From sequence record PV805631.1: a DNA stretch of 64,000 nt; one strand, written 5' to 3'. The position numbers were made by a program, and so were the translations under genes. Of this stretch, positions 56,370 through 64,000 are shown piece by piece (positions within the stretch are counted from its first letter, which is position 1; every line of letters begins with the position of its first letter). The notes under the pieces are model-generated. The model was not told the DNA's origin. It saw nothing but the letters and a program-made list of their open reading frames with translations, and searched no databases. Source of the stretch: a phage.

Positions 56370-58640
56370 TTACAGGTTCATGCCAAGAGCCGATGCTGGG
56401 TCTTGGCTAGGGTCATAGTATTGGGAACTAAGTGAATAAGCTGGGTCTTGCTGAGCAGCTAAATCCCGTTCTGGTATAGAGTTCACGTTAGTCAAAGTAT
56501 TATATCCAACAGCTGCAGATATGTTGGGGGTAGTTTCCCCTTCTTTAATAGGTGTTGTCAATGCCTTAGTTATCTGAAGGTTCTGGTTTCCTTGGGATTG
56601 TGCTTTTTGTTTTTCCATATCACGAGCATGTTTAGTACCAGATTCCTGTTCCAGATAATCCAGGTCTTTAAGGTCACCACTGGAAGCAGCCTCTTTAGCC
56701 TTAGCCATATTGAGTGCAATCTTACTTTGTAACTCTTCATTCTCAAGCTGTGCTTTCTGAATTGCCAATTGCTTAAGCTGTTCTTCCATAGGGTCTGGCT
56801 GTGGTTGCCAGGTACGTAACTCATGAGCCAGGTCGGGCATACGTTTAAGTTCTGCAATCTTAGCTACGAGAGATAACGTAATAGTTTGGTCAACCGTATT
56901 ACCCAATGTTTGAACCATGAAGCTCAAGTCCTGGGATTTCTGGTTATCAATTTCAGCAGTGTTGATATCAACCTCAATATCGAAGTTACCTTTAAGGTCT
57001 TCACGGTTAATCTCTACATACTGCTCGTTAGTAATACGTACTACTTCTTTCTCAGATAAGAACACAGCATTCATTGCACAAATCTTAGTACCAATGTCTG
57101 CCATGCCCTTAGCTAATCGGCGAAGGATTGCCATCTCACGTTTGGATGCTGCATCAAGTGCACCACGAATACCGGCAGCCACTTCCCCGTAAGCTGAACC
57201 AGTTACACCACCAGAGAATGCTTTAACACCAGTTAATGATTCAGCTTCCTGGTTTTGCATCTGGGTCATTATTATTGCCGACTGAGGTAACTCAGGGAAC
57301 TTATGTTCCATAATGGCCTGACTAGGATTACCCTGCATTGGGTTGTATTCGTAGTCTTGCCCATCGTCATATCGACGACGGTTTAGTGTATCCAACATCC
57401 CTTTAGGATAACCACGTTGACCGTTTGCACTTCGACCTAACAGGTCAATCATCCCACGCATAGTTGCACCAAGAATTGCTTGGTTATCCCCTAACAGTTC
57501 AGCATCAGCTTCACCGAAGAGTTCGCGTTTACGGGGCATGTAAGGAACAACTACTAAAGGTAATTTACCGTCAGGGAATGGGTTCCTCTCCATACGAATA
57601 AGAGTAGAACCAATCCAGGTAGCAACAATAGGTTCCAGAGAACCATCATCATTGATGTCGTAAAATCCCCAGTACTCATAAGCAACAACCTTCTTACGAA
57701 GTGCATCCTTAAACTGGAAGTCACTAGGAGTTTTACTTTCATGGTCTGGGTCAGTCATAGGACTGGAACTTTCCCAGTCAATCTTATCTAAATTGTGATA
57801 ACGGTCCTTATTCTTCATGAGGTCTGCTTTGCATGTCTCAAAGGAGATAACTGCATACAGAGCCTTATCCAAATCACCGTTACAGCTTGGGTCAATAACT
57901 ACGTTATTAGGGTTAAGCATTTCAACGGTAGGTCTGTTAACTAGTGCCTTCTCTACTTCTACTTCAGTAACTCCAGTCTGGATTGCATAGGTAGCTTCCC
58001 CAGTTTCATTAAAGTAGTTAACAGCTTCCTTAATATCTTCCGACATTGTCTCATCGTACTCACGAGGATTCTCTGCCTGAAGCTGTAAAGCCTGTTGAAG
58101 AACATCTGCTTGTTCCTGGTTCTCGATTGGATATAACTGGAAGACTGGTGTTTCTGTTTTAATCTTAACAGTCTTACGTTCCCAACCAATACGAGCAATA
58201 CCAGTACCGTCATCTACAACACTGTGTACGTAATCATCTACTAGTTTCACTTTATTAAGCTGGGTACGGAATTGGTAGTTAAGAACTAATTCATTCTGAC
58301 GTGCAGCTAACTCATCTTCAAAAGTAACCGGAGTTACTTTAAAGAGCTTATTAGACGAGAGAAAAGGCTCAGACAATGGAGCATATCGCCATTCTGCCTG
58401 ACGGCGAACCAGTCTGGGTTGGACTTGTGAGCGCCCCTTAACCTTTGGGGGTTTAGCTTTACCTTTAACTTCCATCAGGTCATTCCACTCACGAATCTGA
58501 GCCATAATTGCATCGTGAGCAGGTTTAGCTGATTCCAAATCACCTTTCAGTAATTGGATACTTGGTTCCTTCTTCCAGTCCGTTAGCTTCTCTGATTGAG
58601 CCGGGTCTGGTAAAGGCTTAAAAGTGTCTTGGTGTTCCAT
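56370..58640 (-). CDS. Portal protein (N4 gp59-like)
   Basis: 756 aa ORF upstream of scaffold-like and capsid genes; size and synteny. Confidence 0.6.
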
Positions 58641-58648
58641 AGTTAATC

Positions 58649-59149
58649 CTATTCAAAAAGTTTACGGTCAGCCTGAATTTGCTTACCCAACTCAATTAGT
58701 TGGTTGTCACGGAGTCTAACAGTTGCCCGGAGTTCTTCAACCAAACGTCTGCCTTCTTCAAGACTGTTGTCGAGTCTGGCTGCATGGCTTGCAAGACTTC
58801 TGCACTCAAGGGTTCCGGCTTCGGCTTGACGTTTATATACCGATGCTCGTTTTTCAGACTGTTGCATCCGGCTGTCATAATCACTGCTAACGCGAGCAAG
58901 CTCGCTTGCGTAATTACTCTCAGCCGTCTGCAACCGGGAAGTGAGTAACCCGACTTCATAACTATGGTTTCTTTGGAGAGCATTGTATTTGTCCTGTAGT
59001 TTTTGTGTTGCCTTCTGGTCTTCAACCTTTTGAGCATCCCACTTCTTTTGAACAGTAGACTGTCCGTTGGAATTGCCCCAAAAGTAAATGGTGGCCCCGA
59101 GGACCACCACCAGAAGATAAGGCCAACCTTTAGAGATTAGCATCTTCAT
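58649..59149 (-). CDS. i-spanin (Rz-like)
   Basis: N-terminal TM helix then charged coiled-coil; directly after endolysin; start among three nearby Met is uncertain. Confidence 0.5.
58696..58959 (-). CDS. o-spanin (Rz1-like) nested in the i-spanin gene
   Basis: Alternate frame inside i-spanin; signal peptide with lipobox-like MTAG-C, Pro-rich mature part. Confidence 0.4.
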   Translation of the reverse strand: MKSGYSLPGCRRLRVITQASLLALAVIMTAGCNSLKNEHRYINVKPKPEPLSAEVLQAMQPDSTTVLKKADVWLKNSGQLLDSVTTN

Positions 59150-59765
59150 TACATGCCTCCAGTGGTACATTACCGATTCGGTTAGCTACCCAACCATACG
59201 TAAAGTCTGGCATGTTCAATGAGGTGTAGTGGTTCAGTTGTTTAGCATCGAGTAACTTAATCATTACCTGACATGCTGCAACTTTGCCTCGTTTTTTCTG
59301 CAATGCTTTATATGCATTAACAGTACCTGCACCGACTTTACCATCAACTTGTATTTTAGGGTAGTCTTTGCCATCACGGGACATTTCATTAAGAGATTGC
59401 TGCAACCATTTAGCTGGTCTGGTTACACCGGTATTAACCCCAGCATCAACCAGTTTGTGTGTTATAGCAGGAGATATATCAGCGAAGGCTACGAAGTTAG
59501 GCTTAATAACGTAGTCATCAATGTATATCTCAGCAGCCATCTCTTTAGATAAACCCTTCATGGAACCATCCCAACCATACTCAGTAGCCAGAACTTCTTT
59601 ATGAGACTTAGCTACTGATTGGGTAATACCATGATTAGTTTCCCCACCTGGGTCACGAGGATTGTTTACGTACCCTCCTTCCATATAGAACACTGCCCCC
59701 AGAATAGCAGCGACAACTCCTCCCACTACACCCCCTTTTGCAGCAAGTTTCTGTTTAGCTTTCAT
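59130..59765 (-). CDS. Endolysin, GH108-type muramidase with N-terminal signal-anchor
   Basis: EGGYVNNPRDPGGETNHGIT matches the GH108 signature from memory; N-terminal hydrophobic GGVVGGVVAAILGAVF. Confidence 0.7.
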   Translation of the reverse strand: MKAKQKLAAKGGVVGGVVAAILGAVFYMEGGYVNNPRDPGGETNHGITQSVAKSHKEVLATEYGWDGSMKGLSKEMAAEIYIDDYVIKPNFVAFADISPAITHKLVDAGVNTGVTRPAKWLQQSLNEMSRDGKDYPKIQVDGKVGAGTVNAYKALQKKRGKVAACQVMIKLLDAKQLNHYTSLNMPDFTYGWVANRIGNVPLEACNEDANL

Positions 59766-60015
59766 GAGAATCTTCCTTTGGATGGAATCGTATTAGTCTG
59801 CCCACAATGTTTAAGGCAAATAGTGCGATTGTAATACTGGAACCATGTGGAATATCTTCAAGGATGTGACGAGGTAGTCCTGTTAGCATTGGTTGGATAA
59901 TATCCACTGTAGAAAACAGAATTAATCCAAATGCACTAATCTGAACAGATGCCCACTTCCAGGACTTCTTCCAGTTAGGAACTAGCCCTATTTTTCTTTT
60001 TAGCTTGCGAACCAT
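59755..60015 (-). CDS. Holin candidate (two TM helices)
   Basis: Basic N-terminus then two hydrophobic helices; start chosen at internal Met, so 5' end uncertain. Confidence 0.4.
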   Translation of the reverse strand: MVRKLKRKIGLVPNWKKSWKWASVQISAFGLILFSTVDIIQPMLTGLPRHILEDIPHGSSITIALFALNIVGRLIRFHPKEDSHES

Positions 60016-60332
60016 GCGAATATCTCCCGTCTTGCAGCAGCCAATACACCAATAATTGCACCTGCCCCAGCCCATACCCACTTACCAAAAATCCCAGCAC
60101 CTGCAACCTTATGTTTGATGGTGATGAACTCTTCAATGGTAGGTTCGGACTTAGTGATGCTCTCCTCTACCCGTTTAAGTCGGGTACTGAGGTCACCCAT
60201 AGACTCGCTTAGCTTTTTAATAGACTCTTCCATTTTCTCCCTATCCCTCGATTCACGAGTTTGGTTTTCGAAAATGTTTCTCAGTCTCTCTTCAAGTCTG
60301 GCTAGAGTTACGTTATCTGGTTCATTTCCCAT
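60000..60332 (-). CDS. Coiled-coil protein with C-terminal transmembrane anchor
   Basis: Charged helical N-terminal part, C-terminal GAGIFGKWVWAGAGAIIGVLAAA. Confidence 0.4.
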   Translation of the reverse strand: MGNEPDNVTLARLEERLRNIFENQTRESRDREKMEESIKKLSESMGDLSTRLKRVEESITKSEPTIEEFITIKHKVAGAGIFGKWVWAGAGAIIGVLAAARREIFAWFAS

Positions 60333-60579
60333 AGGGATTTTCTCAGGTTAGTTAAGTCGTAATTGACTAAAACAGTCTACCTAATGACTTGTTTTTGGTA
60401 CAACAAAAACCCACCCCCCGCAACCTAGTTGGGCTGGTTAAAGCCTGAAATATGGAACAGCAGTCACCAAAACAACAAAGACCATACTTAGGGTTGAGAC
60501 AACCATATGGGTGGCTATATGCGTATAATATTTTTAGGGAGCAAGTGTATACTTGCTCCCCAGAGTTATCTCAGAGTCA

Positions 60580-63114
60580 TCAGAACACATAATCCAGTTG
60601 CGTAAGCTGCTTCAACTGAATCTGCACGGTACTATCCAGAGTTACTGCCGGAACAGTTAAGCCAGAAACACCGATTGCAAAGTCCGCAATGAACCCGGTA
60701 GTAGGATTCTTTACTATATCCGCCCCAGTACCCCCAGAACCTGTACTTGCAAACTGAGTCTGCTTAGTACCATAAGCATTCCCTGTACCCGCAATAACTA
60801 GTTGCCATACACCCCTGCCGAGCGTACCTGGAATACTCAAGCTACCTGAACCAGCAGCCCGAAATATCTTGGTATTCTCATAGAACATACACTCTTGCAA
60901 CGTGCAGGTACTTCTCTGCCCGGTACTCACAACCTGATTACCCCGGAAGCTAAAGTTAGTCTGGTCATTCAGAACGAAGTCACACAGCTTAGCCTCTTGC
61001 ACCCGCACGTTCATATCCAGAGTGTTGGCATGAGCAATCAGGGACTTAGGAATACCTTGCACCTTATATCCAACAGCACGATAACTTAAATCCAGAGAGT
61101 TGTACTGCTTCACGGAGTTGCCAATCAGCTTAACCGTCTGTCCCCGATATACCTGGGATGCGCTAGCCCCAGCGTTAACTATAATAGCCTCGGTTGTGTT
61201 ATTGACAGTCTGACACTTAAGTACAACCGTATTGTGACTGATATCGATATCCTGGTACACCTGGTATGAGCTATCCCCTGCTCCGGTCGATATAGCTACC
61301 CCATCAAAAGCTCTAAGCTCGCAATAGTTGTTGTGAATCTTAACAAAGGGGTTCGGATACGTCGCTGCCGTAGCCTCCCCGCCGCCACCTACATCGATGC
61401 TGCGAGTATACTTTCCACCTATAAGCAGTCCGGAAGTAGCACTAGCAGGAATATCTCTGGAGCGCACATAGTTGTTGCTAACGATGAGGTTGTATGGTTC
61501 GTAGTTTGGATTCCAACCTGCCCCACATTTAGCATATATACCAACTACGCCGTGCTCAAGGCACATGTTCTCCGTGATGATTACCTGCCCACCACCGTGG
61601 AAGTCAATACACTTATGACGACAGTTCTTAATCTGGTTTTTAGCAACAACTACGTTCCTGATTCTTCGGTTACGCGCATGCGAAATACCGTACCCAGGGT
61701 CGTAGCTATCGTTCAGAACATCATCACCGTAAGGGTGTCCAATATTCTGGATATCGTTGGACTCATAGTTTAGTCTGTAGCCGGACAGTACGTAGATACC
61801 TGCACTGTAGCAATCCTTGATGGTACAGCCCATAACCATAACACCGTCAGGTACATCCGTGTCATTCGTATAATCCGTGCTGCCGTAGGTAGTCGCAATG
61901 TTACGGATGCCTATACCAATGCCACCAAAGTTAAAACCGGATACGTGCGAGTTCAGAATAAGGATGCCACGGCAGCCGCGTTGCACCTTGATACCATTAG
62001 CCCAGCTTCCGATGTAACCGCCAAGGAAAGTCCCCCAGGTACTGCGCCACCCATCCAACTGATTACCCGCGTCATCATAGTTAGGGAACTGTCCAGCTAC
62101 ACCAGCATAAGCACCAGACGTGTACGCACTGGAGTCAACGGAGTTATTAGGACCTGTAAACAGTGCTGTATCGTATCCGAAACGAGCCTCACCTTTCTCT
62201 GCATAACCAGTAGGCACATCTATAGCAGGGAACTTGTTAGGGCCACGCACAGTCAGCGATACAGTCACGTTCCGGCAATTTACAAGGGCAAGTCCGTCCA
62301 GCCCATGCGTATTCACAATTATAGTGCCGTTGGAGATACGAATACCTTCCTTATTTACCAGTGCCAGACACGGACTGTAGTTACGTGTACCGTCGCTGAA
62401 GTCAGGCTCAGTAGGGTACGTAGAAGCCAATGCAGGATTTTTTCGAACTAAATATGTCTTTCCACCTAAATCTATGTCGCCAGTAGCGGCGTCGAAACAT
62501 GCCTGCACTGCCAACGTATCGTCGGCAACGCCATCACCAACCGCCCCCCATCCACGTGGATCGCCATTATCACGCCAGCGAGCCATTTGTAGTTCGGGGT
62601 ATTTTGTTGCACCTTCAGGGTCTGAAATCTGTCCTCGTAGTACCGCATCCCCAACACTCACCCAAGCACCCAGACCAACGCCACCAGAAGTTTCGGGGGT
62701 TGAATCAGCAGGAACCTCTTTAGGCAATACACCATCCCATCGATACTTACCATCGGTAAAGACAACCAGTTCATTCTTGGTATTAACTGTTACACCAGTA
62801 TCAAATGAACCAGGTAAGGTTACATACTCTTCACGAGCAACAGCCAGTGCACCTAAGTCCACACTACCAGCAGAGTGAACTAATACACCAGCAGGACTAA
62901 GGCTTATAGCAGTAACACCTGAACCAATGTTAGCAGGTAAGGAATAAGCACGCTGTGTCCCTTTGTCGTAGATGACTTTGTAACCACTTAGTACAGCACC
63001 CACTGAGAAGTAAACAACCTCAGATTGTTTAACCCCAAAGTGACGTGCTATTGCTTGTTTATTGGTTAGGATTCCTGTTGAACCCTTACCGCCTTGTGAG
63101 AACATTTCGTTCAT
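60580..63114 (-). CDS. Tailspike / tail fibre protein with beta-helix-like repeats
   Basis: 844 aa; Gly/Asn/Ile/Val-rich repeated rungs typical of right-handed beta-helix proteins. Confidence 0.55.
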   Translation of the reverse strand: MNEMFSQGGKGSTGILTNKQAIARHFGVKQSEVVYFSVGAVLSGYKVIYDKGTQRAYSLPANIGSGVTAISLSPAGVLVHSAGSVDLGALAVAREEYVTLPGSFDTGVTVNTKNELVVFTDGKYRWDGVLPKEVPADSTPETSGGVGLGAWVSVGDAVLRGQISDPEGATKYPELQMARWRDNGDPRGWGAVGDGVADDTLAVQACFDAATGDIDLGGKTYLVRKNPALASTYPTEPDFSDGTRNYSPCLALVNKEGIRISNGTIIVNTHGLDGLALVNCRNVTVSLTVRGPNKFPAIDVPTGYAEKGEARFGYDTALFTGPNNSVDSSAYTSGAYAGVAGQFPNYDDAGNQLDGWRSTWGTFLGGYIGSWANGIKVQRGCRGILILNSHVSGFNFGGIGIGIRNIATTYGSTDYTNDTDVPDGVMVMGCTIKDCYSAGIYVLSGYRLNYESNDIQNIGHPYGDDVLNDSYDPGYGISHARNRRIRNVVVAKNQIKNCRHKCIDFHGGGQVIITENMCLEHGVVGIYAKCGAGWNPNYEPYNLIVSNNYVRSRDIPASATSGLLIGGKYTRSIDVGGGGEATAATYPNPFVKIHNNYCELRAFDGVAISTGAGDSSYQVYQDIDISHNTVVLKCQTVNNTTEAIIVNAGASASQVYRGQTVKLIGNSVKQYNSLDLSYRAVGYKVQGIPKSLIAHANTLDMNVRVQEAKLCDFVLNDQTNFSFRGNQVVSTGQRSTCTLQECMFYENTKIFRAAGSGSLSIPGTLGRGVWQLVIAGTGNAYGTKQTQFASTGSGGTGADIVKNPTTGFIADFAIGVSGLTVPAVTLDSTVQIQLKQLTQLDYVF

Positions 63115-63161
63115 ATAAACCTCTTTGTTTTTCTAAGAAACCCCGCCGAAGCGGGGGTATT

Positions 63162-64000
63162 CTACCTGATAATGAACTTACCGAGGCTCATATCATTTAT
63201 CAGAGTTGCAACTATGTTTGCCAGTTGGGTGGTTGTTAACGTGTTCACATCACCACCACGCAACTGTCCGGCGTTTGTGAATGGGAACTGCTGAGGCTGA
63301 GCGCTATTGTAAAACTGGTTCCCCTCTTCATACCGAGAAGACGGCGTAGAAGTGTAAAGGATTCCTTTAGTAGTCGCAGGAACAGAACAATTCACGATGT
63401 TTACATGACCAGCGATGCCAACGCACTCGATAGGGCGATCAACAGTACCAAACGGTTGAACACCAACCAGGCGATGCACGTTCAAGCTCTGAGCTGCCTG
63501 CGCGTACAGATAAGAACTAGGCTGCCCGTTAACACCTCTGATGTTCCAGTTGTCTACTTCAATGTGTCGGGCATTATGAATCTGACAGATTGCTTGACCG
63601 TCTGCATCAGGAAATGCACCAACAATACGCACGTTCTTCATAGTGATATCGGAAGTAGCTGTTGCGTTCAACCCGCAGTTAATCATAACAGCTTTAGAAC
63701 CAGATTGTGTGCAGTGGATTGTCAGCCCGTCGAATTCAATATCGCCTAGATTTACTGTGTGAGAGGAGCCATCCTTACGCAAAAAGAATACAGCCCAATC
63801 TGTGTGTCCTGTTATTAAGATATTACTAAATCGCAGGCGTGTGCAGACTACCGGATAATATCGACAGAGGATTGGCTGTGAACAATTCTTGATTGTGATG
63901 TTGTCATACGTGACATCACTGGAACCCTCAATCGCAATACCCGCATTACATGCTTCAATGTAAGCACCGGTCACACTTCCGTTGGTGAAGTTTGCGCGGA
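63162..64000 (-). CDS. Second tailspike-like beta-helix protein, 5' end beyond the window
   Basis: Frame stays open from 63974 to the window edge; beta-helix-like repeats (NITIKNC, VRIVGAF). Confidence 0.45.
   Translation of the reverse strand, partial: RANFTNGSVTGAYIEACNAGIAIEGSSDVTYDNITIKNCSQPILCRYYPVVCTRLRFSNILITGHTDWAVFFLRKDGSSHTVNLGDIEFDGLTIHCTQSGSKAVMINCGLNATATSDITMKNVRIVGAFPDADGQAICQIHNARHIEVDNWNIRGVNGQPSSYLYAQAAQSLNVHRLVGVQPFGTVDRPIECVGIAGHVNIVNCSVPATTKGILYTSTPSSRYEEGNQFYNSAQPQQFPFTNAGQLRGGDVNTLTTTQLANIVATLINDMSLGKFIIR

Follow-up and report, generated by a model that had tools for sequence, protein, structure and literature searches.

A probable N4-type lysis cassette with a predicted tail-anchored coiled-coil pinholin in a Gamaleyavirus

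Results

Gene content and surroundings of the cassette

The window, that is, the whole 64-kb stretch of phage DNA analyzed here, belongs to a coliphage of the genus Gamaleyavirus (G7C-like, Schitoviridae). Between positions 60332 and 58649, its minus strand carries five overlapping genes whose open reading frames all lie at the coordinates proposed in a preliminary description made from the DNA sequence. Directly observed in this order, they encode a coiled-coil protein of 110 aa, a two-TM holin of 86 aa, a muramidase of 211 aa, and an i-spanin of 166 aa whose gene contains an embedded o-spanin of 87 aa, with overlaps of 16, 11, and 20 nt between successive pairs. The portal gene follows directly downstream on the late strand after a gap of 8 nt, and the gene upstream encodes a tailspike, from which the cassette is separated by an intergenic spacer of 247 nt.

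At the DNA level, the cassette is 96 to 97% identical to those of phages ST4, PhAPEC5, and G7C, and its proteins are 96 to 99% identical to their Gamaleyavirus counterparts. In close relatives, the genes are annotated gp63, gp62, gp61, gp60, and gp60', and the products are labeled hypothetical protein, holin, N-acetylmuramidase, Rz, and Rz1, respectively (G7C, HQ259105, and other Gamaleyavirus records); endolysin, Rz-like spanin, and o-spanin are also used as labels in the ST4, PhAPEC5, G7C, or Bas96 records. The present locus differs from the Gamaleyavirus records (G7C HQ259105, ST4, PhAPEC5/7, SP5M, and Bas96) by a few substitutions and, in the adjacent tailspike, by the receptor-binding part. 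More than 90 phage records carry the same five genes, and homologs of the coiled-coil protein fall into 132 clusters at 50% identity (E ≤ 1e-3); this recurrence argues that the five-gene pattern is well beyond chance.

The gene order and the position of the portal gene are those of the gp63-gp62-gp61-gp60 (plus embedded gp60a) layout of phage N4, as found in Schitoviridae. Indeed, the five genes, their order, their overlaps, and the downstream portal gene all match the N4 cassette, whereas the upstream neighbor differs, being gp64 in N4 and the tailspike gene here. Full-length BLASTP identities to the N4 proteins are 60% for gp63, 57% for gp62, 69% for gp61, 59% for gp60, and 61% for gp60a, with E-values for the five proteins spanning 1e-35 to 1e-111. 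The locus is thus very probably a late-expressed multigene lysis cassette, gene-for-gene orthologous to N4 gp63-gp62-gp61-gp60/gp60a. Such a cassette is already known: dozens of phage genomes that are nearly identical here carry its annotation, and the orthologous N4 genes have been dissected experimentally. A compact lysis cassette had been proposed in the preliminary description, with which the family matches, the annotation of near-identical phages, and the experiments on the N4 orthologs all agree.

The spacer upstream of the cassette carries near its start a perfect 10-bp hairpin (60537..60560, minus strand; GGGAGCAAGT-ATAC-ACTTGCTCCC) located ~20 nt past the tailspike stop codon. The predicted RNA fold of 60333-60580 reaches -72 kcal/mol (z = -2.58), and a terminator or repeat is annotated at the hairpin position in related records. 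This hairpin may mark the end of a transcript or serve as a processing signal. A scan of 58300-60800 returned no sigma-70-like promoter for the strand that encodes the cassette, and candidates were fewer overall than the shuffle expectation; N4-type late promoters are unlike the sigma-70 consensus, so that this result is the expected one and says little about transcription of the cassette.

The coiled-coil, tail-anchored protein

The first gene of the cassette (60000..60332, minus strand) encodes a 110-aa protein, hereafter gp63-like, which is a predicted pinholin and lysis timer on the basis of its homology to N4 gp63 (60% identity over residues 1-110, E = 7e-52) and its match to phrog_5211 (E = 3e-49). 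Its layout comprises an N-terminal coiled coil, a conserved juxtamembrane segment, a C-terminal membrane anchor, and a short basic/amphipathic tail. Hydrophobic residues occur at heptad spacing in residues 10-21 and 34-59, and the sole hydrophobic stretch is C-terminal, at residues 76-100 (Kyte-Doolittle 19-residue maximum of 1.59). This anchor (codons 76-100, 60033..60107, minus strand), of sequence VAGAGIFGKWVWAGAGAIIGVLAAA and followed by RREIFAWFAS, contains 56% Gly+Ala. With its single C-terminal hydrophobic segment, the protein is not a class I, II, or III holin, in line with the earlier remark that it does not conform to standard topologies. An AlphaFold2 model, based on an alignment from which the N4 sequence was left out, consists of a single long helix (residues 6-109), and a Foldseek search of viral structures with this model gave no matches, a lone long helix being an uninformative query.

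The protein is 98% identical to G7C gp63, with substitutions such as K53R and A109T. Its N4 counterpart also has 110 aa; however, the N-terminal coiled coil is divergent between the two, and the alternative start Met17 of N4 gp63 has no equivalent Met in the gp63-like protein. Across the gp63 family, the motif PTIxEF..K.KV.GAG..GKW.W and the TMD are kept down to ~25% identity, and conservation among 77 family members reaches 90% or more at G78, G83, and W87. Pfam matches of the gp63-like protein (CLZ, Trimer_CC, Leu_zip, and others) were below threshold and are taken to reflect generic coiled-coil similarity rather than homology, and no NCBIfam model scored above threshold for gp63, gp62, or the spanins. 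Partial matches in 150-kb myoviruses were rejected as a wider range of the family: located next to a fragment of a tailspike adaptor, they are remnants with truncations or frameshifts. Two distant metagenomic homologs (P0237 and P0163) lie on contigs of 0.9 to 1.4 kb with no usable gene context.

Regarding orientation in the membrane, predictors disagree for gp63 according to the work on N4 (10.1101/2025.11.12.688109). In the gp63-like protein, the charges flanking the TMD, Arg101-Arg102 after it and K73/H74/K75 before it, compete under the positive-inside rule.

Codons 62-72 of the gp63-like gene (60117..60149, minus strand), which encode SEPTIEEFITI, match the so-called LIN domain of N4, where the rapid-lysis mutations S62F, T65I, I70T/N, T71A, and I72L of gp63 have been reported (10.1101/2025.11.12.688109). 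In an ungapped alignment, S62, T65, I70, T71, and I72 are all the same in the gp63-like protein and N4 gp63, and from residue 62 to the C terminus, 44 of the 49 residues (90%) are identical. Moreover, P64 is almost invariant across the gp63 family, and the pLDDT of this segment, 62-67, is the lowest in the AlphaFold2 model.

The two-TM holin, the endolysin, and the spanins

The second gene (59755..60015, minus strand) encodes a predicted 86-aa class II-type holin homologous to N4 gp62, with two TMDs corresponding to hydrophobic segments at approximately residues 22-41 and 58-75. It matches Pfam DUF7940 (54.5 bits, cut-off 27) and phrog_1356, annotated 'holin' (E = 1e-29), and is 99% identical to G7C gp62. 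A GGGAGA Shine-Dalgarno sequence stands 7 nt ahead of ATG 60015, and the reading frame is open upstream to GTG 60081 and ATG 60075, reminiscent of N4 gp62, which has a long form of 109 aa; the upstream start of this long form is an ATG in N4 and a GTG here. The 86-aa homolog of phage UE-M6 has been cloned, expressed, and treated as a holin.

The third gene (59130..59765, minus strand) encodes a predicted 211-aa SAR endolysin homologous to N4 gp61 and made of an N-terminal SAR-type domain, a GH108 N-acetylmuramidase domain, and a PG_binding_3 domain. Both Pfam families match above their cut-offs: Glyco_hydro_108 (PF05838) with 71.1 bits for a cut-off of 21.2, and PG_binding_3 (PF09374) with 33.1 bits for a cut-off of 24.6. 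An endolysin PHROG is matched as well. The protein also aligns with a solved GH108-type muramidase chain (6V3Z, E = 5e-27), the block EGGYVN.P.D.GG.T..GIT being conserved, and matches the NCBIfam model 'holin-associated N-acetylmuramidase' with E = 7e-16, under its curated cut-off. The SAR-type anchor (codons 8-27, 59685..59744, minus strand; AAKGGVVGGVVAAILGAVFY) contains 50% Gly+Ala, with a Kyte-Doolittle maximum of 1.91 over residues 7-25. It is flanked by five Lys in residues 2-10 (K2, K4, K6, and K10 among them) and ends two residues ahead of the Glu of the catalytic motif (M28-E29-G-G-Y). Residue G15 aligns with G12 of N4 gp61, whose G12E substitution is a rapid-lysis mutation (10.1101/2025.11.12.688109). 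Because the protein is 69% identical to N4 gp61, itself reported to be membrane-associated and pinholin-compatible (10.1101/2025.11.12.688109), it would be exported by Sec without cleavage of the signal peptide and released from the membrane upon depolarization.

This two-domain architecture and the EGGY...DPGG.T..GIT block are shared by other GH108 and PG_binding_3 muramidases, namely N4 gp61, the Salmonella TtsA-like Sen1395 (6V3Z), and the Acinetobacter phage enzymes ElyA1 and Abp013; the N-terminal SAR anchor of the gp61-like protein and N4 gp61 sets these two apart.

The i-spanin gene (58649..59149, minus strand), homologous to N4 gp60, encodes a protein of the type II membrane kind, with an N-terminal TMD, its only hydrophobic segment, and a periplasmic coiled coil; it matches phrog_6197, 'Rz-like spanin', with E = 9e-78. 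Its reading frame opens at ATG 59170; since ATG 59149 stands 7 nt behind a GGAGG Shine-Dalgarno sequence, this codon is most likely the start, giving a product of 166 aa rather than 173, and the Bas96 annotation uses the same start. Wholly inside this gene, in the +1 frame, lies the 87-aa o-spanin gene (58696..58959, minus strand), related to the embedded gp60a of N4. Its signal peptide ends in ...AVIMTAG, followed by CNS, which gives a lipobox MTAG/C (Cys codon 58864-58866), an Asn at position +2 (non-Asp), and a mature protein of 56 residues, as in N4, with the proline-containing stretch KPKPEP. Both the Bas96 and the G7C annotations name the embedded frame an o-spanin.

The three components described in this section had all been put forward in the preliminary description, and each is borne out: the two-TM holin candidate by its DUF7940 and phrog_1356 matches and its two hydrophobic segments, the signal-anchored GH108 endolysin by PF05838, 6V3Z, and its Gly/Ala-rich N-terminal anchor, and the i-spanin with its nested o-spanin by phrog_6197, the lipobox of the embedded +1-frame gene, and homology to N4 gp60/60a.

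Discussion

The functional evidence on cassettes of this type comes from a bioRxiv preprint on N4 (10.1101/2025.11.12.688109), which assigns a role to each product: gp63 is described as a pinholin anchored by its C terminus and bearing a LIN domain, and gp62 as a holin that triggers late and makes large holes, while gp61 is given as the SAR endolysin and gp60/60a are given as the spanins. In that work, E. coli with the gp60-63 cassette lyses in ~25 min and gp63 by itself is lethal to more than 99% of cells; complementation and CCCP assays indicate that the membrane lesions made by gp63 are small and lethal, releasing endolysins of the SAR type but not soluble ones (10.1101/2025.11.12.688109). 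Furthermore, gp63 complements the phage 21 pinholin and not lambda S, gp60/60a complement lambda Rz/Rz1, and rapid-lysis mutations fall in gp63 residues 62-72 and in the SAR domain of gp61 (10.1101/2025.11.12.688109). This goes beyond what could be read from the sequence of the locus, as the N4 ortholog of the tail-anchored protein is the reported principal holin and the seat of rapid-lysis/LIN mutations.

By homology with N4, we infer the following scheme for how and when holes form, how the SAR endolysin is released, and how the two holins share the work. The GH108 muramidase would be exported by Sec, its Gly/Ala-rich SAR helix tethering the enzyme to the inner membrane in an inactive state. 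The gp63-like protein, the predicted pinholin and timer of lysis, would accumulate in the same membrane until, at a set time, small lethal pinholes collapse the proton-motive force. Upon depolarization, the SAR endolysin would leave the membrane around the entire cell and degrade the peptidoglycan. The gp62-like protein, by analogy with its N4 counterpart, is probably an accessory holin that would trigger late and form larger holes, and the i-spanin/o-spanin complex would finally disrupt the outer membrane.

The tail-anchored coiled-coil topology has a precedent among holins in XhlA and SPP1 gp24.1 of Bacillus phages. Members of the XhlA family (PF10779; PBSX XhlA, SPP1 gp24.1) are likewise small, having a coiled coil at the N terminus and only one TM helix, at the C terminus; their genes stand beside those of a two-TM holin (XhlB, gp26) and an endolysin, and they have a role in membrane permeabilization. 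In contrast, their hosts are Gram-positive, and XhlA/gp24.1 and their partners are reported to kill in combination and to have no activity singly, which sets them apart from N4 gp63. The gp63-like protein itself has no match to PF10779 at E ≤ 1; among its 77 relatives, 11 match this family, all below threshold (best E of 0.014), and 9 match phrog_1193, 'hemolysin'. Comparison of the gp63 family (77 sequences) with the XhlA family (35 sequences) by hhalign gave a probability of 44.6% and E = 2.3e-4 over 72 columns, and comparison with SPP1 gp24.1 alone gave a probability of 15%. XhlA is not mentioned in the text of the N4 preprint (10.1101/2025.11.12.688109). We consider it possible, though rather doubtful, that gp63-type pinholins and XhlA/SPP1 gp24.1 holins form one ancient tail-anchored coiled-coil class, extending from Gram-negative to Gram-positive hosts and typically paired with a two-TM holin. 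If true, such a link would establish a cross-phylum holin class.

The relationship with phage 21 (S21-68/R21) is of another kind. Functional equivalence is indicated by the complementation of S21(am) by N4 gp63 and its action with a SAR endolysin; however, S21 has two TMDs, of which TMD1 is SAR-like, and no cytoplasmic coiled coil, whereas gp63 has one C-terminal TMD. The gp63-like protein, having a single C-terminal hydrophobic segment, likewise departs from the class II topology of the phage 21 type (two TMDs, N-in/C-in). With no sequence similarity between them, the resemblance of gp63 to the phage 21 pinholin is an analogy and not family membership.

Other readings of the gp63-like protein have to be weighed against that of a pinholin. 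That it could be an antiholin or regulator, the gp62-like protein being the real holin, is suggested by the 'putative antiholin' annotation of the ortholog in Stenotrophomonas phage Piffle, by the 'holin' label that most records place only on the two-TM protein, by the UE-M6 study, which took the 86-aa protein as the holin, and by the resemblance of the cytoplasmic coiled coil to a regulatory module; gp62 and gp63 also occur together in 60 of 65 N4-like genomes (10.1101/2025.11.12.688109). We nevertheless judge this very unlikely. N4 gp63 is lethal by itself and complements a pinholin defect, plasmid-driven lysis is unchanged without gp62 and occurs 20 min later without gp63, and every N4 phage recovered without gp63 carried compensating mutations in the SAR domain (10.1101/2025.11.12.688109). 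Moreover, in annotated records, the cassette is syntenic in Schitoviridae infecting Stenotrophomonas and Delftia, and in Delftia phage RG-2014, which has no gp62-like ORF, the gp63-like gene lies directly next to that of the SAR endolysin, an arrangement that fits gp63 as the essential holin. The absence of gp62 from RG-2014 and its dispensability in N4 (10.1101/2025.11.12.688109) also speak against an obligate two-component holin, in which neither protein would be active alone, as for SPP1 gp24.1 with gp26 and PBSX XhlA with XhlB. Such a system would account for the same pairing of a C-terminally anchored coiled-coil protein with a two-TM holin beside an endolysin, for the weak XhlA signals and hhalign alignment given above, and for the synergy of N4 gp62 and gp63 in a SAR-endolysin background (10.1101/2025.11.12.688109). 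However, homology to XhlA is not established, and N4 gp62 and gp63 are each lethal alone, with different timing and hole size (10.1101/2025.11.12.688109), which makes this reading very improbable.

Several GenBank and UniRef entries name the 110-aa protein 'tail length tape-measure protein', and its gene lies just downstream of tailspike genes, as would a virion or tail protein outside the lysis system. At 110 aa and anchored in a membrane, this protein cannot act as a tape measure, a component that podoviruses are not known to have; the name is an artifact of its coiled coil, propagated by automatic annotation. The gene further shares 16 nt with the holin gene and is set apart from the tailspike gene by the hairpin-bearing spacer, and together with the N4 functional evidence for a lysis role, this leaves a tail function with almost no likelihood. 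In this phage, the gene, of a kind usually labeled 'hypothetical' or 'tail length tape-measure protein', would be better annotated as a gp63-type pinholin.

G7C is reported to be without lysis inhibition (10.1101/2025.11.12.688109), so the regulatory behavior of the N4 LIN domain is not simply transferable to the gp63-like protein. As the segment is fully conserved in a G7C-type phage, it could conceivably act as a general gating hinge of gp63-type holins rather than as a sensor specific to LIN. G7C-type phages, which are reportedly without LIN although the one studied here has a LIN segment identical to that of N4, offer a natural comparison for what imposes LIN in N4.

Organization of the lysis cassette and its relation to N4

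The five closely packed minus-strand genes between 60332 and 58649 of the window encode a gp63-like protein of 110 aa (60332..60000) with a coiled coil and a C-terminal hydrophobic stretch, a gp62-like protein of 86 aa (60015..59755) with two hydrophobic segments, a gp61-like protein of 211 aa (59765..59130) with GH108 and PG_binding_3 domains behind an N-terminal anchor, a gp60-like i-spanin of 166 aa (59149..58649) and an embedded gp60a-like o-spanin of 87 aa (58959..58696). The gp62-like gene overlaps the preceding gene by 16 nt and carries a GGGAGA Shine-Dalgarno sequence 5' of its ATG, an 11-nt overlap joins the holin and endolysin genes, and the i-spanin stop lies 8 nt before the start of the portal gene. 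The cassette region shares 96-97% DNA identity with Escherichia phages ST4, PhAPEC5, PhAPEC7, SP5M, G7C and Bas96, which are N4-like podoviruses placed in the Schitoviridae, genus Gamaleyavirus, in those records having a taxonomy line. At the protein level, identity to G7C reaches 96-99%, and full-length N4 homologues are found for all five products (gp63 60%, gp62 57%, gp61 69%, gp60 59%, embedded gp60a 61%) in the same gene order, with the portal gene adjoining. In G7C, gp63 is labelled hypothetical, gp62 putative holin, gp61 N-acetylmuramidase and gp60/gp60' Rz/Rz1; the annotation of Bas96 and Mimir124 is equivalent. The cassette had been annotated earlier and has experimentally characterized orthologues in N4.

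The N4 cassette was dissected by the Ramsey laboratory in a preprint (bioRxiv 10.1101/2025.11.12.688109), according to which plasmid-borne gp60-63 lyse E. coli in about 25 min. N4 gp61 is reported to be a signal-anchor-release (SAR) endolysin: it complements endolysin defects in combination with a large-hole holin as well as with a pinholin, and causes slow cell rounding when alone; gp60/gp60a complement lambda Rz/Rz1 (10.1101/2025.11.12.688109). N4 gp63, described as having 110 residues with a C-terminal anchor and a cytoplasmic alpha-helical N-terminal domain, is reported as a pinholin that can stand in for the phage 21 pinholin, though not for lambda S, and alone kills >99% of cells, and gp62 behaves as a non-essential, late-triggering large-hole holin (10.1101/2025.11.12.688109).

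Family assignments in the window agree with these roles. The 211-aa protein matches Pfam Glyco_hydro_108 (71.1 bits, cut-off 21.2) and PG_binding_3 (33.1 bits, cut-off 24.6) as well as the solved chain 6V3Z (E = 5e-27), with the EGGYVN.P.D.GG.T..GIT block kept. Gly and Ala make up 50% of its N-terminal segment (residues 8-27), which has five lysines before it and stops two residues short of the EGGY glutamate; it looks like a textbook SAR domain. The preliminary description, made without database searches, had proposed a GH108 endolysin with such an anchor and a two-transmembrane holin candidate, and the latter is borne out by matches of the 86-aa protein to DUF7940 (54.5 bits) and phrog_1356 'holin' (E = 1e-29). 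From the related phage UE-M6, the corresponding 86-aa holin and 211-aa GH108 endolysin have been cloned and expressed (PMC12661215). The i-spanin matches phrog_6197 'Rz-like spanin' (E = 9e-78), and the o-spanin ORF lies in the +1 frame entirely within it, with a signal peptide ending at MTAG|C and a predicted mature lipoprotein of 56 residues with Asn at +2. The nested arrangement described before therefore stands, with the likely i-spanin start moved to ATG 59149, which has a GGAGG Shine-Dalgarno 7 nt before it in a frame open from 59170; this is the sole adjustment to a description that is correct throughout.

The gp62-like frame also runs on without a stop for 22 codons upstream of the ATG that follows the Shine-Dalgarno sequence (60016-60081, minus strand), with possible starts at GTG 60081 and ATG 60075, in a region overlapping, in another frame, the part of gp63 coding for its transmembrane domain (TMD). 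N4 gp62 has an equivalent extension (MGMGW..., 109-aa form), discussed as a possible dual-start motif (10.1101/2025.11.12.688109). No clear Shine-Dalgarno sequence was found at GTG 60081, and the conservation of the internal ATG may be incidental because the conserved gp63 codons for Val86-Trp87 give rise to it.

The gp63-like protein and its probable role in lysis

The 110-aa protein shows 3-4 heptad spacing of hydrophobic residues at 10-21 and 34-59, and its sole hydrophobic stretch lies towards the C-terminus (residues 76-100, VAGAGIFGKWVWAGAGAIIGVLAAA), ahead of RREIFAWFAS; this is the C-terminally anchored coiled coil first described for 60332..60000. It matches phrog_5211 (function unknown in PHROGs; E = 3e-49), and a search of 1.8 billion representatives returned 132 clusters at 50% identity (E <= 1e-3), nearly all of 100-125 aa with end-to-end matches. 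Across a 77-member alignment, a variable coiled coil precedes the conserved motif PTIxEF..K.KV.GAG..GKW.W, after which come a hydrophobic helix, one basic residue and a short amphipathic tail; conservation is at least 90% at P64, G78, G83 and W87. Homologues are often named 'tail length tape-measure protein (T)' in records and UniRef clusters (e.g. protein records P0001, P0025, P0044 and P0045 and search matches H21, H29 and H38), evidently a spreading mis-annotation driven by the coiled coil; another (P0058) is filed under an Enterococcus faecium assembly, probably through contamination.

Spontaneous rapid-lysis mutants of N4 map to gp63 residues 62-72 (S62F, T65I, I70T/N, T71A, I72L), termed the 'LIN domain' for lysis inhibition (LIN), and further ones to the gp61 SAR helix, e.g. 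G12E (10.1101/2025.11.12.688109). The alignment with N4 gp63 is gapless, S62, T65, I70, T71 and I72 are all present in the window protein, and 44/49 residues between position 62 and the C-terminus are identical, with far more divergence in the N-terminal coiled coil; G12 of N4 gp61 corresponds to G15 of the window endolysin. The LIN segment would not suffice for LIN, since G7C reportedly lacks lysis inhibition and yet the mutated positions are identical. AlphaFold2, run with the family alignment, predicts a single helix at residues 6-109 (mean pLDDT 83.6), and the lowest pLDDT (62-67) falls in the LIN/juxtamembrane segment (residues 61-80), as would fit a hinge there. Basic residues flank the TMD on both sides, and predictors disagree on the membrane orientation of N4 gp63 (10.1101/2025.11.12.688109).

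Whether gp63-like proteins are holins or antiholins can be weighed from distant Schitoviridae, in which the cassette is syntenic. In Stenotrophomonas phage Piffle the genes are labelled 'putative antiholin', holin, 'SAR endolysin N-acetylmuramidase', i-spanin and o-spanin. In Delftia phage RG-2014 (locus L011:2501-3440), the SAR endolysin gene comes directly after the gp63-like gene, and a gp62-like two-TM ORF is absent from every frame, which makes this a natural 'gp63-only' cassette; its lack of a gp62-like ORF favours gp63 as the indispensable holin over an antiholin.

Orthology makes it very probable that lysis by the window phage proceeds as in N4. The muramidase would be exported, its SAR helix keeping it inactive in the inner membrane, and the tail-anchored gp63-like protein would build up and trigger, forming pinholes that depolarize the membrane; the endolysin would then be set free to degrade murein, with the gp62-like protein as an accessory or back-up holin, and the spanin pair would break the outer membrane.

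Comparison with other holins

The gp63-like protein was singled out early as unlike standard holins, and indeed the phage 21 pinholin resembles gp63 in function but is defined by a two-TMD topology that gp63 does not share, so the likeness is best read as analogy only. Its topology does have precedent in PBSX XhlA and SPP1 gp24.1, which combine a coiled coil with a C-terminal TM helix and have as partners the two-TM holins XhlB and gp26, each pair being encoded next to the endolysin (PMC6316719). XhlA does not appear in the text of the N4 preprint (10.1101/2025.11.12.688109). The window protein has no match to Pfam XhlA; among the 77 relatives, 11 have below-threshold matches to it and nine match phrog_1193 'hemolysin'. 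Aligning the gp63 family to 35 XhlA sequences with hhalign gave a probability of 44.6% (E = 2.3e-4, 72 columns) and paired the IK..V.GA junction and the TMD; a score of this kind could come from coiled-coil-plus-TMD composition alone.

Sequences flanking the cassette

The 844-aa tailspike gene (60580-63114, minus strand) is mosaic. Window 62813-63999, covering its first ~100 residues and the end of the tail gene that lies upstream, matches G7C at 99.3% identity, and the remaining tailspike has no match to G7C gp63.1. For 60580-62754, identity is about 87-89% to genes for tail fibres in ~39-kb Enterobacter cloacae phages, and for 60611-62409 it is 91% to the tailspike gene in Salmonella phage P46FS4 (159 kb). 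This pattern suggests that the receptor-binding module was exchanged.

Truncated or frameshifted gp63-like copies occur in the 150-kb Phapecoctavirus myoviruses vB_Ec-G1 (Escherichia; locus L005:2498-3246, residues 3-84 of the window protein, 58.5% identity) and ZCKP1 (Klebsiella; locus L006:2510-3166, residues 38-84, 97.9% identity). Both lie directly 5' of a 102-aa ORF equal to the N-terminal adaptor of the window tailspike (MNEMFSQGGKGSTGILTNKQA...) and lack the membrane anchor beyond GIFGKW. Rather than a functional pinholin, they look like a scar left by recombination when tailspike modules were exchanged with G7C-like phages.

Between the tailspike gene and the cassette lies a 247-nt spacer (60333-60579, minus strand) that as a whole folds better than shuffled sequences (z = -2.58). 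It starts with a perfect 10-bp GC-rich hairpin (60537-60560), followed by A-rich, not T-rich, sequence, at a position annotated in related records as a terminator or a 16-bp repeat, and near 60385-60420 it holds a G-rich stretch and then TTTTTGTTG.
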